A stretch of DNA of 64,000 bases from Patescibacteria group bacterium (GTDB lineage Bacteria > Patescibacteriota > Minisyncoccia > UBA6257 > GWB1-50-10). The notes below the pieces were generated by a model. That model saw nothing but the letters and a program-made list of their open reading frames with translations. It did not search any database and had not been told where the DNA came from. The stretch lies in contig JAMCYI010000011.1 of NCBI GenBank assembly GCA_023474215.1, positions 16,739 through 80,738 on the forward strand, given 5' to 3'. Made by a program: the position numbers and the translations under genes. Positions 13,843 through 35,978 of this stretch are shown here, piece after piece (the first letter of the stretch is position 1; every line of letters begins with the position of its first letter).

Positions 13843-14520
13843 TCAGTTCAAGATGAGCTTGCCGACGACGCCGGCTTGAGCACGTCCCGGTACGTCGTCA
13901 TGAAATCCGTAAATACCCGGCTTCATAATGACAAACGTGAGGAGCCGCGCACTCGAAGGCCCCACGCCGACGCTGATTGAAGAAAGGCTTGGATTGTCGA
14001 ACTTGAAGACGTGCGTATTATCATCGCTTGAAATGATCGCAAGCGTAATAATGCCACCCGCTTGGCCTGTAATGACGACCGGCGAAAAGCCGGTCGAGCT
14101 CACAGTGAGCTTCACCGCATTCGATGGTATTTGATCCTGCCCGATTTGACCCGATTGGCTGATCAGCCTGTAATCGCCGGAGGACAAACTCGGACCCGTG
14201 ATGCTCGCCCCCGCCGACGATCCGCCGGATGACGGGGTTTGCTCGCTGGGGGTTTGATTTCCGGTACTTGTGGCCGGTGCGGTCTCCGCGGGCTGACTCG
14301 GCGTTTCCACGGGAGGAGTTGTTCCTTGGCCTTGATTCCCGTTCGGAGTTTGCTGGTTCAAAGGAGGCAGAGTTACGGTTTCAGTCGATGTCGACTTGCC
14401 CCCCAAAAGACCCCCGACGTTTCCGAGCGGGGCAAGAAAGAAGATACCAAAGAAGACGATCGCGACGACAATGAGACCGATAAAAAGAAGGATGATGATG
14501 AGACGAATGGCATCTTCCAT
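13843..14520 (-). CDS. Membrane-anchored cupredoxin-fold protein
   Basis: TM helix, Pro/Thr/Ser linker, GFSP...HVF...PGIYGFHDDVPG...G.L cupredoxin-like C-terminus. Confidence 0.65.
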   Translation of the reverse strand: MEDAIRLIIILLFIGLIVVAIVFFGIFFLAPLGNVGGLLGGKSTSTETVTLPPLNQQTPNGNQGQGTTPPVETPSQPAETAPATSTGNQTPSEQTPSSGGSSAGASITGPSLSSGDYRLISQSGQIGQDQIPSNAVKLTVSSTGFSPVVITGQAGGIITLAIISSDDNTHVFKFDNPSLSSISVGVGPSSARLLTFVIMKPGIYGFHDDVPGRAQAGVVGKLILN

Positions 14521-14631
14521 GGGAAGGTTGCGTTCAATTTAACTTTATCAGATTTGCAAGGAAATAGGAACGGAAGTTTTCCCGACCCATTTCCCGAGTT
14601 CGATTCTCACTGACATTAAGGAATATAGAAG

Positions 14632-14859
14632 ACCCACTACAAGAGTGGGCTTTGTATTTTGTGCGGCCAGGGAGAATCGGCTTCGCCTCTCGCTGCGCTC
14701 GGGCTAGCCACCGCCTCGCGTCCCTCGACAAGCTCGGGGCATGCTCCGGCGTTCGATTCCCCACGTGAGCCAAGCAGTTAGCTCACTCTGGCCAGGCATA
14801 GAAAATACAAAACCCACTACAAGAGTGGGCTTTGTATTTTGTGCGGCCAGGGAGAATCG
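14632..14859 (-). mobile_element. tRNA-3'-associated mini-element, copy at tRNA-Gly, with 48-bp direct repeat
   Basis: 48-bp exact repeat at 14632-14679 and 14812-14859 (tRNA 3' end plus most of the terminator); core 14680-14750 similar to 18042-18117 and 18844-18918. Confidence 0.8.
14801..14840 (-). terminator. Hairpin terminator after tRNA-Gly
   Basis: AAAATACAAAGCCCACT/AGTGGGTTTTGTATTTT stem on the minus strand. Confidence 0.65.
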
Positions 14860-14912
14860 AACTCCCGTCTCATCCTTGGCAAGGACGTGTTCTACCACTA
14901 AACCATGACCGC
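14842..14912 (-). tRNA. tRNA-Gly(GCC)
   Basis: Cloverleaf GCGGTCA...TGGCCGC-A; anticodon loop TTGCCAA; T-loop TTCGATT. Confidence 0.95.
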
Positions 14913-14920
14913 ATCCGCTT

Positions 14921-15124
14921 CTATTGCAATGTTCCCGGCGGAGGTAACGTTGGTCCCTTGACATAGGGTACCGATCCTGCCGGTGGCCCGACAAAATTTG
15001 TCGAAGTTGCCGCGTTGCCGCTCTTTTCGGAAGAATTACTCGTTCCAATATACGATAAAACGACAAGTAAGGCAATGAGAAAGAGAAGGATGCCTAAAAG
15101 ATAAAATATGATTTTTCTCTGCAT
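14921..15124 (-). CDS. Small membrane protein
   Basis: 67-aa ORF with an N-terminal TM helix and Pro-rich tail between tRNA-Leu and tRNA-Gly. Confidence 0.6.
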   Translation of the reverse strand: MQRKIIFYLLGILLFLIALLVVLSYIGTSNSSEKSGNAATSTNFVGPPAGSVPYVKGPTLPPPGTLQ

Positions 15125-15153
15125 TTTGTGTTTACACTGAGCTTGTCGAAGTG

Positions 15154-15237
15154 TGCCCGGAGTCGGACTCGGACCGACACGCCCTTGCGGGCAACAGATC
15201 TTAAGTCTGTCGCGGCTGCCAATTACGCCATCCGGGC
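15154..15237 (-). tRNA. tRNA-Leu(TAA)
   Basis: GCCCGGA...TCCGGGC-A; anticodon arm ACAGA-CTTAAGA-TCTGT; long variable arm; T-loop TCCGAGT. Confidence 0.93.
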
Positions 15238-15273
15238 AGTTTCAATTCAGTTTAACGGGTTACCGACTAAGTT

Positions 15274-16002
15274 TCAATGTTGTTTACTATTATGCGACTT
15301 ATGAATTTGATAGTCGGGTATCCTAGAAAGGAATATGGCTTTGCGCTCCAGTCCTATTGGGAACCCAGGATAATACATATAGCGCAATAACTCATCGGAA
15401 TCTTTCATCCCATACCCCAACTTCAAAGAGGCGCCATTATTAAACACACCCAGCGCTTTCAATGGGAGATTGATTTCTTTCTTAAGGATGAACATAAGCT
15501 CTTCGAGAAACTTTCTGCTACCTGACGTAAAATTGGTCCTTAATTCACGAGCAGGTCGACCGTCCTTTGTTCTAATATACTCAACGAAGAAAACACTACC
15601 GTCGCCATCAAAATAGCCCCTTATAAAATCTCTTAAATATTTTCTTGGCACACGAGGAAAGGTAATGGTTTTACTTTTACGCCTGAATCCACCAAGTTTA
15701 GTTAAAGATCCATAGAGATGTTTCGAGTGAAAACTAACATGCCAAGCATCGTCCCCCTTGCTCCTCCTCACTGGATTAGTAGAGCTCATCGCAGACCTTA
15801 TATCCATCAGAATGTGCTTATCATTAGAGCACAACACCACCCTATATGATCGCTCCTTCCTCATATAACCGTCCGCAAACCAGAAACCAAGAATGTAAGC
15901 CATGGACGATGACCACTTATCAAAGAACTTCTCATTGAGGGTATACTTTCTACTGTGATATTTGCCTTGGGTTAATATCTTCACAAAAATATTATATCTC
16001 AA
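15274..16002 (-). CDS. Free-standing LAGLIDADG homing-endonuclease-like protein
   Basis: Two LAGLIDADG-type helices (YILGFWFADG and FIRGYFDGDG); AT-rich relative to neighbours. Confidence 0.85.
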   Translation of the reverse strand: MRYNIFVKILTQGKYHSRKYTLNEKFFDKWSSSMAYILGFWFADGYMRKERSYRVVLCSNDKHILMDIRSAMSSTNPVRRSKGDDAWHVSFHSKHLYGSLTKLGGFRRKSKTITFPRVPRKYLRDFIRGYFDGDGSVFFVEYIRTKDGRPARELRTNFTSGSRKFLEELMFILKKEINLPLKALGVFNNGASLKLGYGMKDSDELLRYMYYPGFPIGLERKAIFLSRIPDYQIHKSHNSKQH

Positions 16003-16003
16003 T

Positions 16004-16028
16004 GAGGCTTAAATAGGAATCGAACCTA
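16004..16028 (-). pseudogene. tRNA 3'-half remnant (T-arm plus acceptor-like tail)
   Basis: Minus strand TAGG-TTCGATT-CCTA-TTTAAGCCTC, ending like tRNA-Cys (GCCTC). Confidence 0.5.
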
Positions 16029-16063
16029 ACAACTAATAAAAAGGTTTTCATCGTTGTCTTTTG

Positions 16064-16135
16064 AGGCGGCAGCCGGAGTCGGACCGGCGCATAGTGGTTT
16101 TGCAGACCACCGCGTTACCGTTTCGCCATGCCGCC
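16064..16135 (-). tRNA. tRNA-Cys(GCA)
   Basis: GGCGGCA...TGCCGCC-T; anticodon arm GTGGT-CTGCAAA-ACCAC; U73 discriminator; T-loop TCCGACT. Confidence 0.93.
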
Positions 16136-16139
16136 AGTT

Positions 16140-16430
16140 TTATTTCGCTTGGTCGATGGAGAATTCGAGCTTCGGCATCGGCTTTATGTTCATTTTCCGA
16201 AGAAGCCTGCCTTGGATCTCGCGCCTCCGTCCTTCGATTATTTTATACACTTCTATCTCTTTTTCAAAGGGGAGGACGGAAACCTTGACCCTCGCGGCCG
16301 ACATGTCTTCCGCGACCTCGACCGACGTGATCGTTGCGAGCGCACCTCCGAAATCGAAATCGCTCTGGAAGATCTTATTCAGTTCTCCTTGGATGACGCT
16401 CCCCACTTTCAAATTTCGGTACGGCCTCAT
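16140..16430 (-). CDS. rbfA: Ribosome-binding factor A
   Basis: ITSVEVAEDMSAARVKVS...MPKLEFSID; directly downstream of infB. Confidence 0.85.
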   Translation of the reverse strand: MRPYRNLKVGSVIQGELNKIFQSDFDFGGALATITSVEVAEDMSAARVKVSVLPFEKEIEVYKIIEGRRREIQGRLLRKMNIKPMPKLEFSIDQAK

Positions 16431-17842
16431 AACAAGAAGAGTAAAAGATAACCTGCTTTGATCGGCGCATCGCTTTGAACCAAAAGGCCGACTTCCGTAT
16501 CCGTAGAAGCTTCCGCGGCATCTTTCCGCCCTGATTGCAAATTCAAGATTTTCCCCTCGCCGAGTTTCCGCTTATCGCTCCATACCTCAAATGACTCCTG
16601 ATTCTTGACCGGCCCTAAAACGATCTTCCCTCCGACGACCTGTTCCTTGCCTTTTGCCGCACCGAACGTTTTCAAAATTTCGATCCTTCGCATTTCCCGC
16701 GGGGTCGATTTTTCGATGTATTCCTTGATGCTCTTTTCGAGTTCATACACGATCGGCGACTCGATGATATTCACCTTTTGCGTCTTTGCGAGATTTTCCG
16801 CCGACTTATCCGTCTTTGTCTTGAATCCAAGAACCAAAGCGTTGAAAGCGGCGGCATCCTTCACATCGTTTTCAGTGATGTTGCCGACTCCCTCTTGAAT
16901 GATCCTGACTGGAACCTGAAAATTCGTGTTTTGAATGATCGTTTTCAAGGCCTCAAGTGACGCCATTTCGTCGGACTTCAAAACGAGATTCAAATGTTCA
17001 CGGCTGTCTGATTCGACGGCTTCTTTTTCTTCGATCTTTTCCACTCCAGCGCTCTTGACCTCGAGATTGAACGACGCATGGAATTCTTCGCCGACGACCG
17101 GCATTTTTTCAAATCCAATAATGACAACTGGGGAACTCGGCGACGCCGACGGAACATTTTTCCCCAAAAAATCGTTGATTTGCCGCACCTTGCCGCTCGC
17201 ACTCTCCGCTTTGATGATTTGGCCGGTTTGGAGCGTCCCGTCCTTCAAAATGCCGCTTGCAACCACCCCTTTCCGGGGATCCTTCGTACTCCGAAGGATG
17301 ATGCCGGACGCATCATGCGACGGATCGTACTCCAAATCTTCCATTTCGGCCGCAAGAGCAATGAGATCAAGGAGCTCCGGAACGCCTTCGCCCGTCTTCG
17401 CCGATATTTCTTGCCACGAAACATTCCCGCCGTATCCTTCGAGCAGCACGCCCGCTTGCGCTAGATCCTTTTTTGTTTTCTCGATGTTGGCGTTCGATTT
17501 ATCGATCTTGTTCACGGCAACGACAAAGGGGGTTTTTGTGTTTAATGCGATTTGAATCGCTTCTTTCGTCTGCGGCTGAACGCCGTCATCCGCCGCAACG
17601 ATCAAGACCGCAATGTCCGCGACCCGCGCTCCATATTGCCGCATGTTCGAAAAAGCCTGATGGCCCGGCGTGTCGATGAACGTCATCTTCGTTCCCTTAT
17701 GTTCGATCTCGTAAGCACCGATCGATTGCGTAATGCCGCCGGCTTCCCGCGCAGCGAGGTTCGTTTTCCGAATATAATCAAGGAGCGTGGTTTTTCCGTG
17801 ATCCACGTGACCCATGATGACGATGATAGGAGGCCTCCTCAT
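16427..17842 (-). CDS. infB: Translation initiation factor IF-2 (short form lacking the N-terminal domain)
   Basis: RPPIIVIMGHVDHGKTTLLD, GGITQ, DTPGH and NKID motifs; ATG at 17842. Confidence 0.97.
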   Translation of the reverse strand: MRRPPIIVIMGHVDHGKTTLLDYIRKTNLAAREAGGITQSIGAYEIEHKGTKMTFIDTPGHQAFSNMRQYGARVADIAVLIVAADDGVQPQTKEAIQIALNTKTPFVVAVNKIDKSNANIEKTKKDLAQAGVLLEGYGGNVSWQEISAKTGEGVPELLDLIALAAEMEDLEYDPSHDASGIILRSTKDPRKGVVASGILKDGTLQTGQIIKAESASGKVRQINDFLGKNVPSASPSSPVVIIGFEKMPVVGEEFHASFNLEVKSAGVEKIEEKEAVESDSREHLNLVLKSDEMASLEALKTIIQNTNFQVPVRIIQEGVGNITENDVKDAAAFNALVLGFKTKTDKSAENLAKTQKVNIIESPIVYELEKSIKEYIEKSTPREMRRIEILKTFGAAKGKEQVVGGKIVLGPVKNQESFEVWSDKRKLGEGKILNLQSGRKDAAEASTDTEVGLLVQSDAPIKAGYLLLFLL

Positions 17843-17907
17843 AACACTGGTAAAATTACCAGATAAATGATATAAATACAAGCAGTTCGCGGATTTTTTC
17901 GGAGTGT

Positions 17908-17994
17908 GGAGGCGTGGCCGAGTGGCTTAAGGCAGCATCCTGCTAAGATGTTAGGGGAGCAATCCCCTCGAAGGTTCGAATCCTTCCGCCTCCG
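17908..17994 (+). tRNA. tRNA-Ser(GCT)
   Basis: GGAGGCG...CGCCTCC-G; anticodon loop CTGCTAA; long variable arm. Confidence 0.95.
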
Positions 17995-17996
17995 CA

Positions 17997-18136
17997 GGAG
18001 CGCATGCACGTGAACCGCTTCACGTGCATGAAGATTCGAACGCCGGAGCGTGTCCCGAGCTTGTCGAGGGACGCGAGGCGGTGCCCAGCCCGAGGCGCAA
18101 AGCCGAGAGGCGAGGGAGAATCCTTCCGCCTCCGCA
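17997..18136 (+). mobile_element. tRNA-3'-associated mini-element, copy at tRNA-Ser(GCT)
   Basis: 19-bp repeat GAATCCTTCCGCCTCCGCA at 17978-17996 and 18118-18136; hairpin 18003-18030; inverted T-loop 18033-18041; core 18042-18117. Confidence 0.85.
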
Positions 18137-18141
18137 TTGAT

Positions 18142-18213
18142 GGCCTTATCGTCTAACGGCTAGGACAACGCCCTTTCACGGCGTAAATCCGGGTTCGATT
18201 CCCGGTGAGGCTA
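18142..18213 (+). tRNA. tRNA-Glu(TTC)
   Basis: GGCCTTA...TGAGGCT-A; anticodon arm ACGCC-CTTTCAC-GGCGT. Confidence 0.95.
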
Positions 18214-18233
18214 CAAAAAGTTATAATTGACTT

Positions 18234-18713
18234 ATGGACGACGAAAAGAAAATAACGTGGGAGGCGCCGGAATTCGATTATGTCGAGAAGAGCGTCGGAT
18301 GGTATTTCATTTTCGGCGTTGTGTTCTTTGCCATGATCGTCTTCGGATGGTTCAGCCGCAATTTTTTCTTTATGATCTTCCTCTTGATCGCCGGCATTCT
18401 CGTTGTTGCATTGAGCAACCGGAAACCGGAAAAGGTGAAATTCATCCTCGGAGAGGAAGCGTGTACCATCGGAGCTTCAAAGACGCCCTACCGCTATTCC
18501 GAAATGAAGGGATTCGCCATTGTGGAACGCGAACACCGGAATAACCTTCTTGTTTTCCGGCGAAACGTCGCGGTGAACCAATATTTGAAATTGCCGCTCG
18601 AGAAGGGTATAACAAGCGAGGTACGCAGCTTCTTAAAAGAGAAGCTCGCCGAAGGAAGTTACGAAGAAGGCCTCTTGGACGTTCTCATCGATCGAGTAGG
18701 TCTGGGGTCATAA
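18234..18713 (+). CDS. Conserved hypothetical membrane protein (2 TM + soluble domain)
   Basis: ITWEAPEF...KSVGWY N-terminus, two TM helices; TATAAT 6 nt before ATG. Confidence 0.75.
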   Translation: MDDEKKITWEAPEFDYVEKSVGWYFIFGVVFFAMIVFGWFSRNFFFMIFLLIAGILVVALSNRKPEKVKFILGEEACTIGASKTPYRYSEMKGFAIVEREHRNNLLVFRRNVAVNQYLKLPLEKGITSEVRSFLKEKLAEGSYEEGLLDVLIDRVGLGS

Positions 18714-18716
18714 TTT

Positions 18717-18788
18717 GCCCTCGTCGTCCAACGGACAGGACGCGAGATTGCGGATCTCGAAATAGAGGTTCGATTCCTCTCGAGGGCA
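18717..18788 (+). tRNA. tRNA-Arg(GCG)
   Basis: GCCCTCG...CGAGGGC-A; anticodon arm CGAGA-TTGCGGA-TCTCG. Confidence 0.93.
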
Positions 18789-18791
18789 CAA

Positions 18792-18938
18792 TAAAGTAAA
18801 TTGAGAAGCGCGCAAACTGCTTTGCGCGCGTTTGGAATCGAACGCCGGAGCATGTCCCGACCTCGCCGAGGGACGCGAGGCGGTGCCCAGCCCGAGGCGC
18901 GAGCCGAGAGGCGAGGGAGATTCCTCTCGAGGGCACAA
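18792..18938 (+). mobile_element. tRNA-3'-associated mini-element, copy at tRNA-Arg(GCG)
   Basis: 20-bp repeat GATTCCTCTCGAGGGCACAA at 18772-18791 and 18919-18938; hairpin 18808-18829; inverted T-loop 18834-18843; core 18844-18918. Confidence 0.85.
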
Positions 18939-18974
18939 AAATCCCGCCGGTCCATTGACCGGCGGGATCTTTTT
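18937..18974. terminator. Bidirectional intrinsic terminator
   Basis: ATCCCGCCGGTC-CATT-GACCGGCGGGAT stem flanked by A and T runs between convergent units. Confidence 0.8.
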
Positions 18975-18995
18975 GTATTCGCTGTTTTTTCTATC

Positions 18996-19403
18996 CTATT
19001 GTCCTTGCCCGAATGTTTGCGGTCCGCCTGACGTTTGGCGCAACTGGATCGAATTTGCAGTCACGCTGCCATCCGCATTCGGCGTGCCGACCACAACGAC
19101 TCCCTCGCCCGCGGTAAGATCGGACGACGAAGCCGCAACCGATTTCATGATCGGCGTCGATGTCGAATAGAAGACAATTTCCGACCCTCCGTTCGGAAGC
19201 GACACAGTAATGCTGTTCGTCGCGACCTCACTCACGGTCCCCACAACACCCGATCCGTTTTGGCCGTTCCTTGTGAACTGCCGCGTGCCGTTCGAAGACA
19301 ACGTTTTGTTGCCGGCCGATCCGCCGCGGATCAAGATGCCGAGACCGAGACCGACGACCAGACAAATGACGCCGACAATGATGGCTGTTTTATTTTTTTG
19401 CAT
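18996..19403 (-). CDS. DUF5666-like membrane-anchored protein
   Basis: TM helix; VGTVSEV...[28 protein letters not shown]. Confidence 0.7.
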
Positions 19404-19434
19404 AGTCTCTTGTTATCATTCTGCGACCTTTTCC

Positions 19435-20658
19435 CTATTCATATCGCAGCGCTTCGATTGGATTCAACTGCGAGGCCCTGCGGGCTGGATAGTAGCCAAA
19501 GAGAATGCCGATGCCTGCCGAAACGCCGAATGCGAGAATGATCGAGAAAAGCGAGACTTGTGTCGTAATGCCGGCGAGAAGAGAGAGGAGAAGCGCAAGG
19601 ATCCATCCGAGAAGGATGCCGACAAACCCCCCGGAGAACGTGATGGCCACGGATTCGACGAGAAACTGATAAATAATGTCCTTCCGCTGGGCGCCGATCG
19701 CTTTCCGAAGGCCGATTTCCCGCGTCCGTTCGGTGACCGTCGTCAGCATCATATTCATGATGCCGATGCCGCCGACAAGGAGCGAGATGCCGGCAATCGA
19801 CGCAAGAAGCATGGTAAACGTGTTTGTGATGGTCGATGCCGTTGCGACGATCTGCGCTTGGTTATAGACGCTGAAGTCCGCCAAGGCTGGGTTTGAAATT
19901 TTGTGCCGCTGGAGCAAGAGATTCGTGATGCCCTGCTGCACGGCATCCATAACTTGGGAGTTCGCCGCCTCGACGCTCACCTGGCTGATGTACGTATCTC
20001 CCGCAAGATATTGCTGGGCGGTCGTCAAAGGTACATACACCATGTCGTCGGGACTGTTGAATCCGCTGCCTCCTTGCGAAACCGTGATGCCGATGATGCG
20101 GAACGGCACCTCGTTGATCTTGATGCTTTTTCCGACGGGATCCGTTCCCGTGGCAAAAAGGTCGCTCTCGACGGTCGGTCCAATGACCGCAACGCGCTCG
20201 AAGGATTGAAGATTGGCGTTCGAAATGAACGACCCTTCGGCAATCTGGACATTCCTTACGTTTGCGTAATCCGGCGTGGTTCCGACGATCTGCGTGTTGG
20301 TGTTGGTTCCTGGCGCGGTTATTTGAAATCTCAAGTTAAGGGCCGGTGCAACGGCCGCGACCGAGGGCACTTGAGAAGCGATCGCGTCCGCATCGGCCTG
20401 TGTCAGAGTTTGTGCGCTCCCCCGCCCGCCTGACACTTGGATGCCGACGCCTTTTTGAGTGCCCGGCACGACAAAGAGCAAATTGGAGCCAGCCGACTGG
20501 ATGCTCGCTTGGATACTCGCCTGAGTGCCCTCACCGATCGCGATCATTGCGATGACCGATGCGATGCCGATCACGATGCCAAGCATCGTGAGAAACGTCC
20601 GCGCTTTATTCGCGGTCAGGGCCCAATAGGTTTCTTCCAAAAGATCAATGGTTTTCAT
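19435..20658 (-). CDS. MacB/FtsX-family ABC transporter permease
   Basis: RTFLTMLGIVIGI, VGGIGIMNMML.TVTERTREIGLRKAIGA and PIEALRYE. Confidence 0.95.
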   Translation of the reverse strand: MKTIDLLEETYWALTANKARTFLTMLGIVIGIASVIAMIAIGEGTQASIQASIQSAGSNLLFVVPGTQKGVGIQVSGGRGSAQTLTQADADAIASQVPSVAAVAPALNLRFQITAPGTNTNTQIVGTTPDYANVRNVQIAEGSFISNANLQSFERVAVIGPTVESDLFATGTDPVGKSIKINEVPFRIIGITVSQGGSGFNSPDDMVYVPLTTAQQYLAGDTYISQVSVEAANSQVMDAVQQGITNLLLQRHKISNPALADFSVYNQAQIVATASTITNTFTMLLASIAGISLLVGGIGIMNMMLTTVTERTREIGLRKAIGAQRKDIIYQFLVESVAITFSGGFVGILLGWILALLLSLLAGITTQVSLFSIILAFGVSAGIGILFGYYPARRASQLNPIEALRYE

Positions 20659-35912: not shown

Positions 35913-35978
35913 ATAGAAACTTCGCGACTTGGAAGAGCGGAGCGACATTCAATTTCTGTACCCTCCGCCAATCAAATT

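Follow-up and report, generated by a model that had tools for sequence, protein, structure and literature searches.

Non-coding mini-elements at gene ends of Patescibacteria carry an inverted segment matched to the adjacent gene

The window analysed here is a stretch of 64,000 nucleotides (nt) from a Patescibacteria group bacterium (assembly GCA_023474215.1, contig JAMCYI010000011.1, positions 16,739 to 80,738), which lies on contig C12 of genome G000 (704 kb). It contains 11 transfer RNA (tRNA) genes, as located by ARAGORN, and three of them, Ser(GCT), Arg(GCG) and Gly(GCC), are followed by a short element of common layout. Specifically, the order is intact tRNA, trailer, a hairpin (hairpin H), an inverted T-arm segment, a core of 72–76 nt (family 1) and a direct copy of the tRNA from tRNA position 57 (Table 1). 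The elements are ~140–215 nt long, with no integrase open reading frame (ORF) within. This type of hairpin H precedes all three family-1 cores of G000 and was found before none of the other G000 tRNAs. Rfam covariance models searched against window positions 14000–19500 gave no family above gathering score except tRNA. A first-pass annotation of the sequence had placed the reverse complement of each tRNA's own T-loop region at the left boundary of the core. All three segments are present, between the element-specific hairpin and the shared core: GATTCGAAC behind Ser, GGAATCGAAC behind Arg and GGGGAATCGAAC behind Gly, the last with a single G-T pair at position 62 and outside the interval annotated at first pass.

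Table 1. Features of the three family-1 elements and their host genes (window coordinates).
Feature	Coordinates	Strand	Remarks
tRNA-Ser(GCT), intact host gene	17908..17995	+	ARAGORN; G53 = 17974; upstream copy of 3' fragment 17978-17996
Hairpin H, Ser element	18003..18030	+	
Inverted segment (guide), complementary to Ser positions 53-61	18033..18041	+	
Family-1 core, Ser element	18042..18117	+	two imperfect hairpins, tandem GA loops, covarying stems
Direct copy, Ser 3' fragment (position 57 onward)	18118..18136	+	19 nt exact; repeat analysis; tRNA-Glu begins 6 nt on
tRNA-Arg(GCG), intact host gene	18717..18789	+	ARAGORN; G53 = 18768
Hairpin H, Arg element	18808..18829	+	
Inverted segment, complementary to Arg positions 53-62	18834..18843	+	repeat analysis
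Family-1 core, Arg element	18844..18918	+	92% identity to Ser core
Direct copy, Arg 3' fragment (position 57 onward)	18919..18938	+	20 nt exact; then terminator-like hairpin
tRNA-Gly(GCC), intact host gene	14841..14912	-	ARAGORN; G53 = 14862
Trailer hairpin and inverted acceptor 3' strand copy, Gly element	14788..14839	-	inverted acceptor copy 14788-14794
Hairpin H, Gly element	14765..14786	-	
Inverted segment, complementary to Gly positions 53-64	14751..14762	-	one G-T
Family-1 core, Gly element	14679..14750	-	
Direct copy, Gly 3' fragment (position 57 onward), with part of trailer hairpin	14632..14678	-	
Second inverted T-arm segment and left stub of family-2 core	14576..14608	-	tandem behind Gly element

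Three copies are insufficient for covariation, because each segment fits the three arms almost equally well, with scores no more than two matches apart, and only position 59 is informative. Over positions 53–65, matches to the Ser, Arg and Gly arms are 10, 10 and 10 for the Ser segment, 9, 11 and 11 for the Gly segment, and 9, 10 and 9 for the Arg segment. Collection scans for the core gave at least 80 genome loci and at least 80 metagenome loci, to which 30 loci from relatives were added. The 169 distinct core matches include 151 with a parsable left end and 117 with an upstream T-arm; these 117 form the family-1 test set, and the remaining 52, many of them truncated or orphan, were excluded. 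A small number of misregistered rows (L005, L063 and L255) were retained in the set, with the effect of lowering the match. The other carriers of the family-1 core are Patescibacteria-type or uncultured metagenome-assembled genomes.

The inverted segment matches its own tRNA in 81% of the 117 elements at position 57 (59% when shuffled), 93% at T-loop position 59 (33%), 89% at position 62 (65%), 80% at position 63 (42%) and 72% at position 64 (27%), and none of 10,000 shuffles reaches the observed value at any of these positions. When each of the 36 tRNA types contributes a single element, the match stands at 86% versus 55%. When the element's own tRNA is compared with the tRNA of the most similar core that has a different T-arm, the own tRNA wins in 102 cases, loses in 1 and ties in 14. 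A second family, with an unrelated core, behaves in the same way, with a match of 92% versus 65% at positions 57–64 (n = 19 rows retained out of 30 loci plus G000). In G000, 12 of 40 tested tRNAs have an inverted match to their own T-arm of at least 10/12 inside 140 nt, compared with 3.8 when permuted, and these matches involve at least three core types. Covariation of the inverted segment with its host gene is a real and general feature. The first-pass prediction that the segment would follow its neighbouring tRNA above chance in a larger sample is thus borne out, and the segment is not independent of that T-arm.

Position 55, which is missing from the family-1 direct copy, tracks odd T-loops in three of the four cases read (L093, L106 and L334, not L225). 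In L334 the match is kept 3.6 kb from the tRNA, across an island. Family-2 complementarity sometimes extends beyond position 53 (13 versus 6.6 nt; 160 of 10,000 shuffles), indicating that the partner or template is the intact gene. At tRNA genes that do not encode CCA, the inverted copy tracks the genomic trailer in 7 of 10 cases and TGG in none of 10. A second cognate segment lies upstream of hairpin H and is complementary to the acceptor strand (6.1 versus 4.7 of 8; n = 75); the two cognate segments would thus pair with one and the same strand. The match of the inverted segment is not improved where the direct copy is long and exact (5.05 versus 5.36 of 6).

Cores and hairpins are shared across tRNA types. 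Among 22 pairs of cores at least 90% identical, 4 lie at the same tRNA and 18 at different tRNAs. Likewise, hairpin H similarity follows core identity and not tRNA type: hairpin identity is 0.72 where core identity is at least 93% (n = 9), ~0.53 otherwise and 0.56 by tRNA type. In genome G066, several loci at different tRNAs (9 among the matches listed) share both left hairpin type and core type. Hairpin H splits the inverted copy in 92 of the 117 copies, in 73 of which it stands 10–11 nt from GAAC; the other 25 are without hairpin H, and some of them carry a single long unbroken inverted copy. Because hairpin H and core are shared across tRNAs while the inverted copy stays cognate, the target-specific parts are bordered on either side by parts derived from the element. 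The stem that closes the core on the right shows covariation (107 Watson-Crick and 9 G-T triplets among the 117), which favours folding of the tRNA-sense strand. Covariation of the left stem was excluded from the evidence, because that stem had been used to locate the left end. At L222, L231 and L237, the whole unit of gene-end copy, hairpin, inverted segment and core occurs in tandem arrays at one tRNA. The first hairpin of the Gly core in the window resembles that of the Ser and Arg cores, and the orthologous Gly elements (L024 and L025; G003 and G007) have a short hairpin, a pattern that suggests gene conversion between paralogous cores.

The direct copy is altered in a narrow region. In family 1 it starts at position 57, lacks positions 53–56 and has its first 5 nt exact in 85 of 117 copies; small insertions fall after position 59 in 13 of 16 cases. 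Opposite G57-A58, 16 of the 117 elements have GA in place of TC, which gives tandem GA pairs. These elements occur at G57 tRNAs only (0 of 19 A57 tRNAs) and are scattered among the cores, the nearest core also having GA in just 3 of the 16. Among 34 family-2 direct copies, for which intact positions 62–69 were required, 2 keep positions 53–61 intact and 32 are altered there: 16 read GTGA for GTTC, a mini-hairpin is inserted in 2, and the remaining 14 are changed in other ways. We infer that positions 55–60 are the exchange site, and that the lesions are a built-in bubble or lock holding the copy in place.

The layout is not confined to the T-arm of tRNAs. Family-1 targets include transfer-messenger RNA (tmRNA) besides the 36 tRNA types, and at L012, L020 and L027 family-1 cores lie at a tRNA 3' end away from the T-loop, with an inverted copy of that end. 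A family-2 core lies at the 5' end of tRNA-Leu on the opposite strand (L426). The family-2 layout of inverted plus direct copies is also found at seven protein-gene ends, six of them antisense to the messenger RNA (mRNA); the cores lie at the 5' ends of rplK, typA, lepA, fusA and RNase HI genes, on the opposite strand, and also at the rplK 3' end. The gene names are best NCBIfam hits, those of typA, lepA and RNase HI being under the curated cut-offs, and the typA and lepA ORFs are truncated. In G000 itself, a family-2 element on contig C16 (~1200–1420) adjoins the 5' end of a gene that is probably RNase HI, as named from a motif shared with L432; inverted and direct copies of the gene start are present. 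Since the same layout occurs at sites other than T-arms and antisense to protein genes, the inverted match is not T-arm-specific.

Comparison of the functional with the direct copy of the gene end in three coding cases (L396, L406 and L432) shows differences at 23 synonymous and 10 non-synonymous codons. The synonymous excess is unlike neutral decay, and to judge from these codons one of the two copies was probably imported from another lineage. The inverted segments score 11, 10 and 11 against the functional copy and 10, 8 and 11 against the direct copy. Later allele replacement by homologous recombination could mimic such an import.

From these sequence comparisons, we consider it moderately probable that the elements are enzyme-less, gene-end-replacing integrative mini-elements, in which the inverted copy is a rewritable base-pairing address on a folded single-stranded guide. 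The mobile form would be the unit between the two direct copies, with the inverted segment pairing with the gene-end copy to form a folded attachment stem. An intact target would outpair the element's own partner, which leaves positions 53–56 unpartnered in family 1 and has a bubble at 55–60 in family 2. The inverted segment would thereby pick the target, exchange would take place around positions 55–60, and the displaced old end would stay as the direct copy. On a move to a new gene, fold-back template switching would rewrite the inverted segments, with the intact gene beside them as template, and the enzyme would presumably act in trans. A more specific form of this proposal is tentative, namely that the elements are natural DNA-guided integrators, single-stranded, with a self-carried inverted segment that picks the target, is re-programmed at each move from a copy of the neighbouring gene and is served in trans by a Patescibacteria protein that recombines at almost any gene end. 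Non-coding mobile DNA of this kind is apparently undescribed: no description was found in the literature searched, with subscription journals and supplements outside the search.

Several results weigh against the mini-element interpretation or qualify it. Guide and direct copy drift about equally at positions 59–62 (32 versus 26), as for a passive relic. Guide mismatches comprise 11 G-T and 10 A-C, compared with 55 and 23 in core stems (p = 0.13); with no significant wobble excess, selection on guide pairing lacks support from this test. The direct copy never pairs better with the 5' half of the tRNA (0 of 108, a detection-biased count). Similarity of T-arms among close cores (1.56 versus ~2.7 differences) is a hint that depends on 9 non-independent pairs. 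In the other four coding cases the two copies are near-identical except at the junction or gene start, which fits local duplication equally well. Loop sequences are compatible with a folded form of either DNA or RNA. Downstream of 71 elements no mobility gene recurs; serine recombinase, Y1, GIY-YIG and rve each occur once. The assembled contigs of four runs showed no junction of an excised, empty or circular form, and viral contigs gave no match with either of two strict family patterns; a loose pattern gave 29 viral-contig matches, which we take for probable chance matches.

The equal drift and the lack of wobble excess favour an alternative in which the elements are a passive by-product, that is, a plain target-site duplication whose inverted segment is made and kept cognate by fold-back or quasi-palindrome template switching and has no role in target choice. 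Template switching is able to create and perfect stems and to rewrite stem arms, as described in PMC8794818. Complementarity that runs on past position 53, and copies that lack hairpin H or have one unbroken inverted copy, also suit this alternative. However, it leaves unexplained the fixed spacing of hairpin H to GAAC, the scattered TC-to-GA changes, the recurrent GTGA of family 2 and the imported alleles, and we consider it unlikely. The first-pass suggestion that the ends are templated from the target at insertion holds in part: the segment is target-derived, but pure templating is an incomplete account in view of GA in place of TC, a shared hairpin inside the inverted copy and the three imported-looking functional copies.

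An RNA intermediate is distinctly improbable. In this scheme reverse transcription would start from a read-through or antisense transcript, and template jumping would join the core to the inverted segment as complementary DNA of the precursor 3' end. A precise right junction, a variable left junction, small insertions at the junction, and tRNA-sense-strand wobble in the closing stem (the 9 G-T triplets) are in its favour, as are reverse transcriptases in three of five carrier genomes tested, the element-rich G048, G064 and G066. However, RVT_1 has no match in G000 or G007 (93% and 90% complete), the elements are both sense and antisense to host transcripts, and they lack RNA cover in the single RNA run, which is weak evidence. 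The absence of TGG, together with the tracking of the genomic trailer, also argues against priming by mature tRNA, which we rejected.

As the first-pass annotation noted, the target-derived segment can pair with either the duplicated 3' fragment or the real T-arm. A host-selected RNA switch, in which the segment is retained for pairing with the T-arm of the precursor tRNA and tunes its maturation, would exploit the second pairing. The folding predictions agree with it as far as the pairing goes: with the element present, the probability of the T-stem drops from 0.78 to 0.07, and 87 of 104 folded read-through transcripts have the guide paired to the real arm. The Ser element would be read through if the downstream tRNA-Glu shares its promoter. 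As the cause of the layout, however, a switch is very unlikely. The same layout is found antisense to mRNAs and at non-T-arm sites, the match persists across the island in L334, and there is no wobble excess; moreover, the elements are patchily distributed, in that the Arg element was not found at that tRNA in G003 or G007 and 3 of 301 phylum genomes have the strict pattern. On the folding predictions the element may have an RNA-level effect, most plausibly as a cost or side effect. A decoy attachment site that absorbs integrating phages or islands, also suggested at first pass, is scarcely credible: although serine-recombinase reading frames run into the direct copy at L128 and L190, the T-loop of the direct copy is incomplete in family 1 and mostly damaged in family 2, later DNA in L334, L335 and L336 entered at the true tRNA end, ahead of the element, and a decoy requires neither inverted copy nor core.

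Several candidate partners were considered and rejected. A large serine recombinase lies upstream of the element in three of five orphan loci. Where they could be resolved, the serine-recombinase islands proved independent of the elements. At both L334 and L335 a separate island is delimited by short repeats of the extreme tRNA end. Such recombinases, which have no match in G000, occur in 188 of the 301 phylum genomes, compared with three for the strict core pattern. The recombinase locus L337 has no tRNA within the stretch fetched. In the recombinase islands of L334 (6225–6593) and L337 (8307–8543), an inverted copy of the recombinase gene's 3' end lies upstream of its start, and a convergent tRNA lies near the gene 3' end in 9 of 30 sampled recombinase loci. 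The Y1 genes of G000 (two PF01797 matches, L180 and L181; C16 46339–46566 and 66531–66761) have flanks unrelated to the elements; the Y1-transposase-like gene of L181 is flanked by its own short palindromes, one of which is also in frame. The GIY-YIG and tyrosine recombinase genes of G000 are on contigs other than those with family-1 copies. Its single PF00589 match is on another contig, and none was seen among the 71 downstream ORFs. IS110 (PF01548) has no match in the five carrier genomes, and no DEDD recombinase is among the 71 downstream ORFs. A T-loop intron was also rejected: only 2 of 257 read as a tRNA solely in joined form, one of them N-masked and the other a spare beside an intact Ser(GGA). 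At L110 / L338, ~2181–2400, a tRNA-Ser(GGA) 5' part has its sole 3' end behind the element; since a further, intact Ser(GGA) is present in that genome, this copy is likely a broken spare.

Among known systems, tRNA and tmRNA islands regenerate the target gene on one side and leave the displaced fragment on the other, with crossover in the T-loop or the T/acceptor junction and with 5' and 3' types, according to the Islander report (PMC4383910). A regenerated gene and a displaced fragment at the ends, of both types, are also seen in our elements, with a proposed exchange in the T-loop. Unlike these tyrosine-integrase islands, the elements are ~100–200 nt long, have no integrase or cargo, and contain an internal inverted target copy and a conserved folded core; one core type is found at 36 tRNA types and tmRNA, and family 2 also at protein-gene ends. 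In the folded single-stranded attP of CTX phage, two inverted target-like sites pair into a stem, attP variants differ with the dif target, and integration leaves one functional and two non-functional target-like copies, as PMC3089051 describes. Our elements likewise have inverted target-like sites able to form a stem. CTX uses host XerCD at dif, whereas the elements lie at tRNA, tmRNA and protein-gene ends that share little beyond a leading G and otherwise vary freely, and they have no phage genome.

In the IS110 bridge RNA (PMC11208160), as in our elements, a segment carried by the element pairs with the target across the junction and the two covary. Unlike the bridge RNA system, our elements have no recombinase gene in or beside them, both segments pair with the same strand where bridge-RNA target guides pair with both, and the direct copy is 17–60 nt instead of a 2-nt core. 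In TIGR arrays, two short target-matching segments are split by a hairpin, in parasitic bacteria, and the TIGR-Tas array has 5–15 repeat units, opposite-strand spacers and a Tas gene, as described in PMC12045711; our elements are single or in tandem pairs, with same-strand segments. No Tas gene was seen near them, and their target is the adjacent host gene. Box C occurs in 2 of 117 elements, as judged by the small nucleolar RNA C/D consensus and not by the CCA/UG boxes of TIGR.

IS200/IS605 elements insert after a fixed short motif and are not known to duplicate the flanking sequence. Our elements differ from these and from REP-RAYT in having long direct copies, targets that vary beyond the leading G and no adjacent Y1, apart from the one downstream ORF. 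They resemble IS608 in having subterminal imperfect hairpins, with foot segments that could pair with cleavage sites, as in the description of that element (PMC5934647); the candidate foot pairings are GAAC with GTTC, and the covarying triplet with the last core bases. In the same description IS608 inserts after a fixed tetranucleotide and carries tnpA, and its engineered extension sits on the 3' side of the left hairpin, where it reads the sequence upstream of the cut (PMC5934647). The match in our elements lies 5' of the hairpin and reads mostly downstream, and the gene end is duplicated. By analogy, the elements appear to combine a gene-restoring island, a CTX-like folded stem and bridge-RNA-like guide covariation, but they lack a defining feature of each of these, as well as of IS608 and TIGR.

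In known gene-restoring integrative elements, the site is set by a protein (integrase or XerCD) or by a guide RNA that goes with a recombinase gene. In the elements described here, an address matched to the target is maintained by unrelated non-coding cores at 36 tRNA types, tmRNA and conserved protein genes, and the address changes faster than the cores diverge. The elements point to an unrecognised, sequence-programmed route of insertion in genome-reduced bacteria, and they appear to swap gene-end alleles between lineages. An enzyme search would have a defined substrate in the fixed register together with the lesion window at positions 55–60. For annotation, a short direct repeat behind a tRNA of such a genome is not necessarily a prophage scar.

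Other features of the window and of G000 were noted. At 35935–35965 (+), the Ser(CGA) 3' end is repeated in a degenerate direct copy that has a right stub like that of family 2 but lacks an inverted segment; it is probably a decayed element. A divergent haplotype block at 17819–18062, seen in two runs, spans the infB start and the Ser element, with a near-identical gene downstream and compensatory changes within hairpin H. Immediately behind tRNA-Cys, a 242-amino-acid ORF (15274–16002, -) matches LAGLIDADG_3 (E = 1.5e-10), and a similar-looking ORF start lies behind tRNA-Leu(CAA) on contig C13 of G000. Finally, Arg(TCG) and Lys(CTT) are paired, with an identical spacer between them, on two G000 contigs, at C4 14571–14795 (contig end) and C10 7371–7562, which is possibly an assembly overlap.
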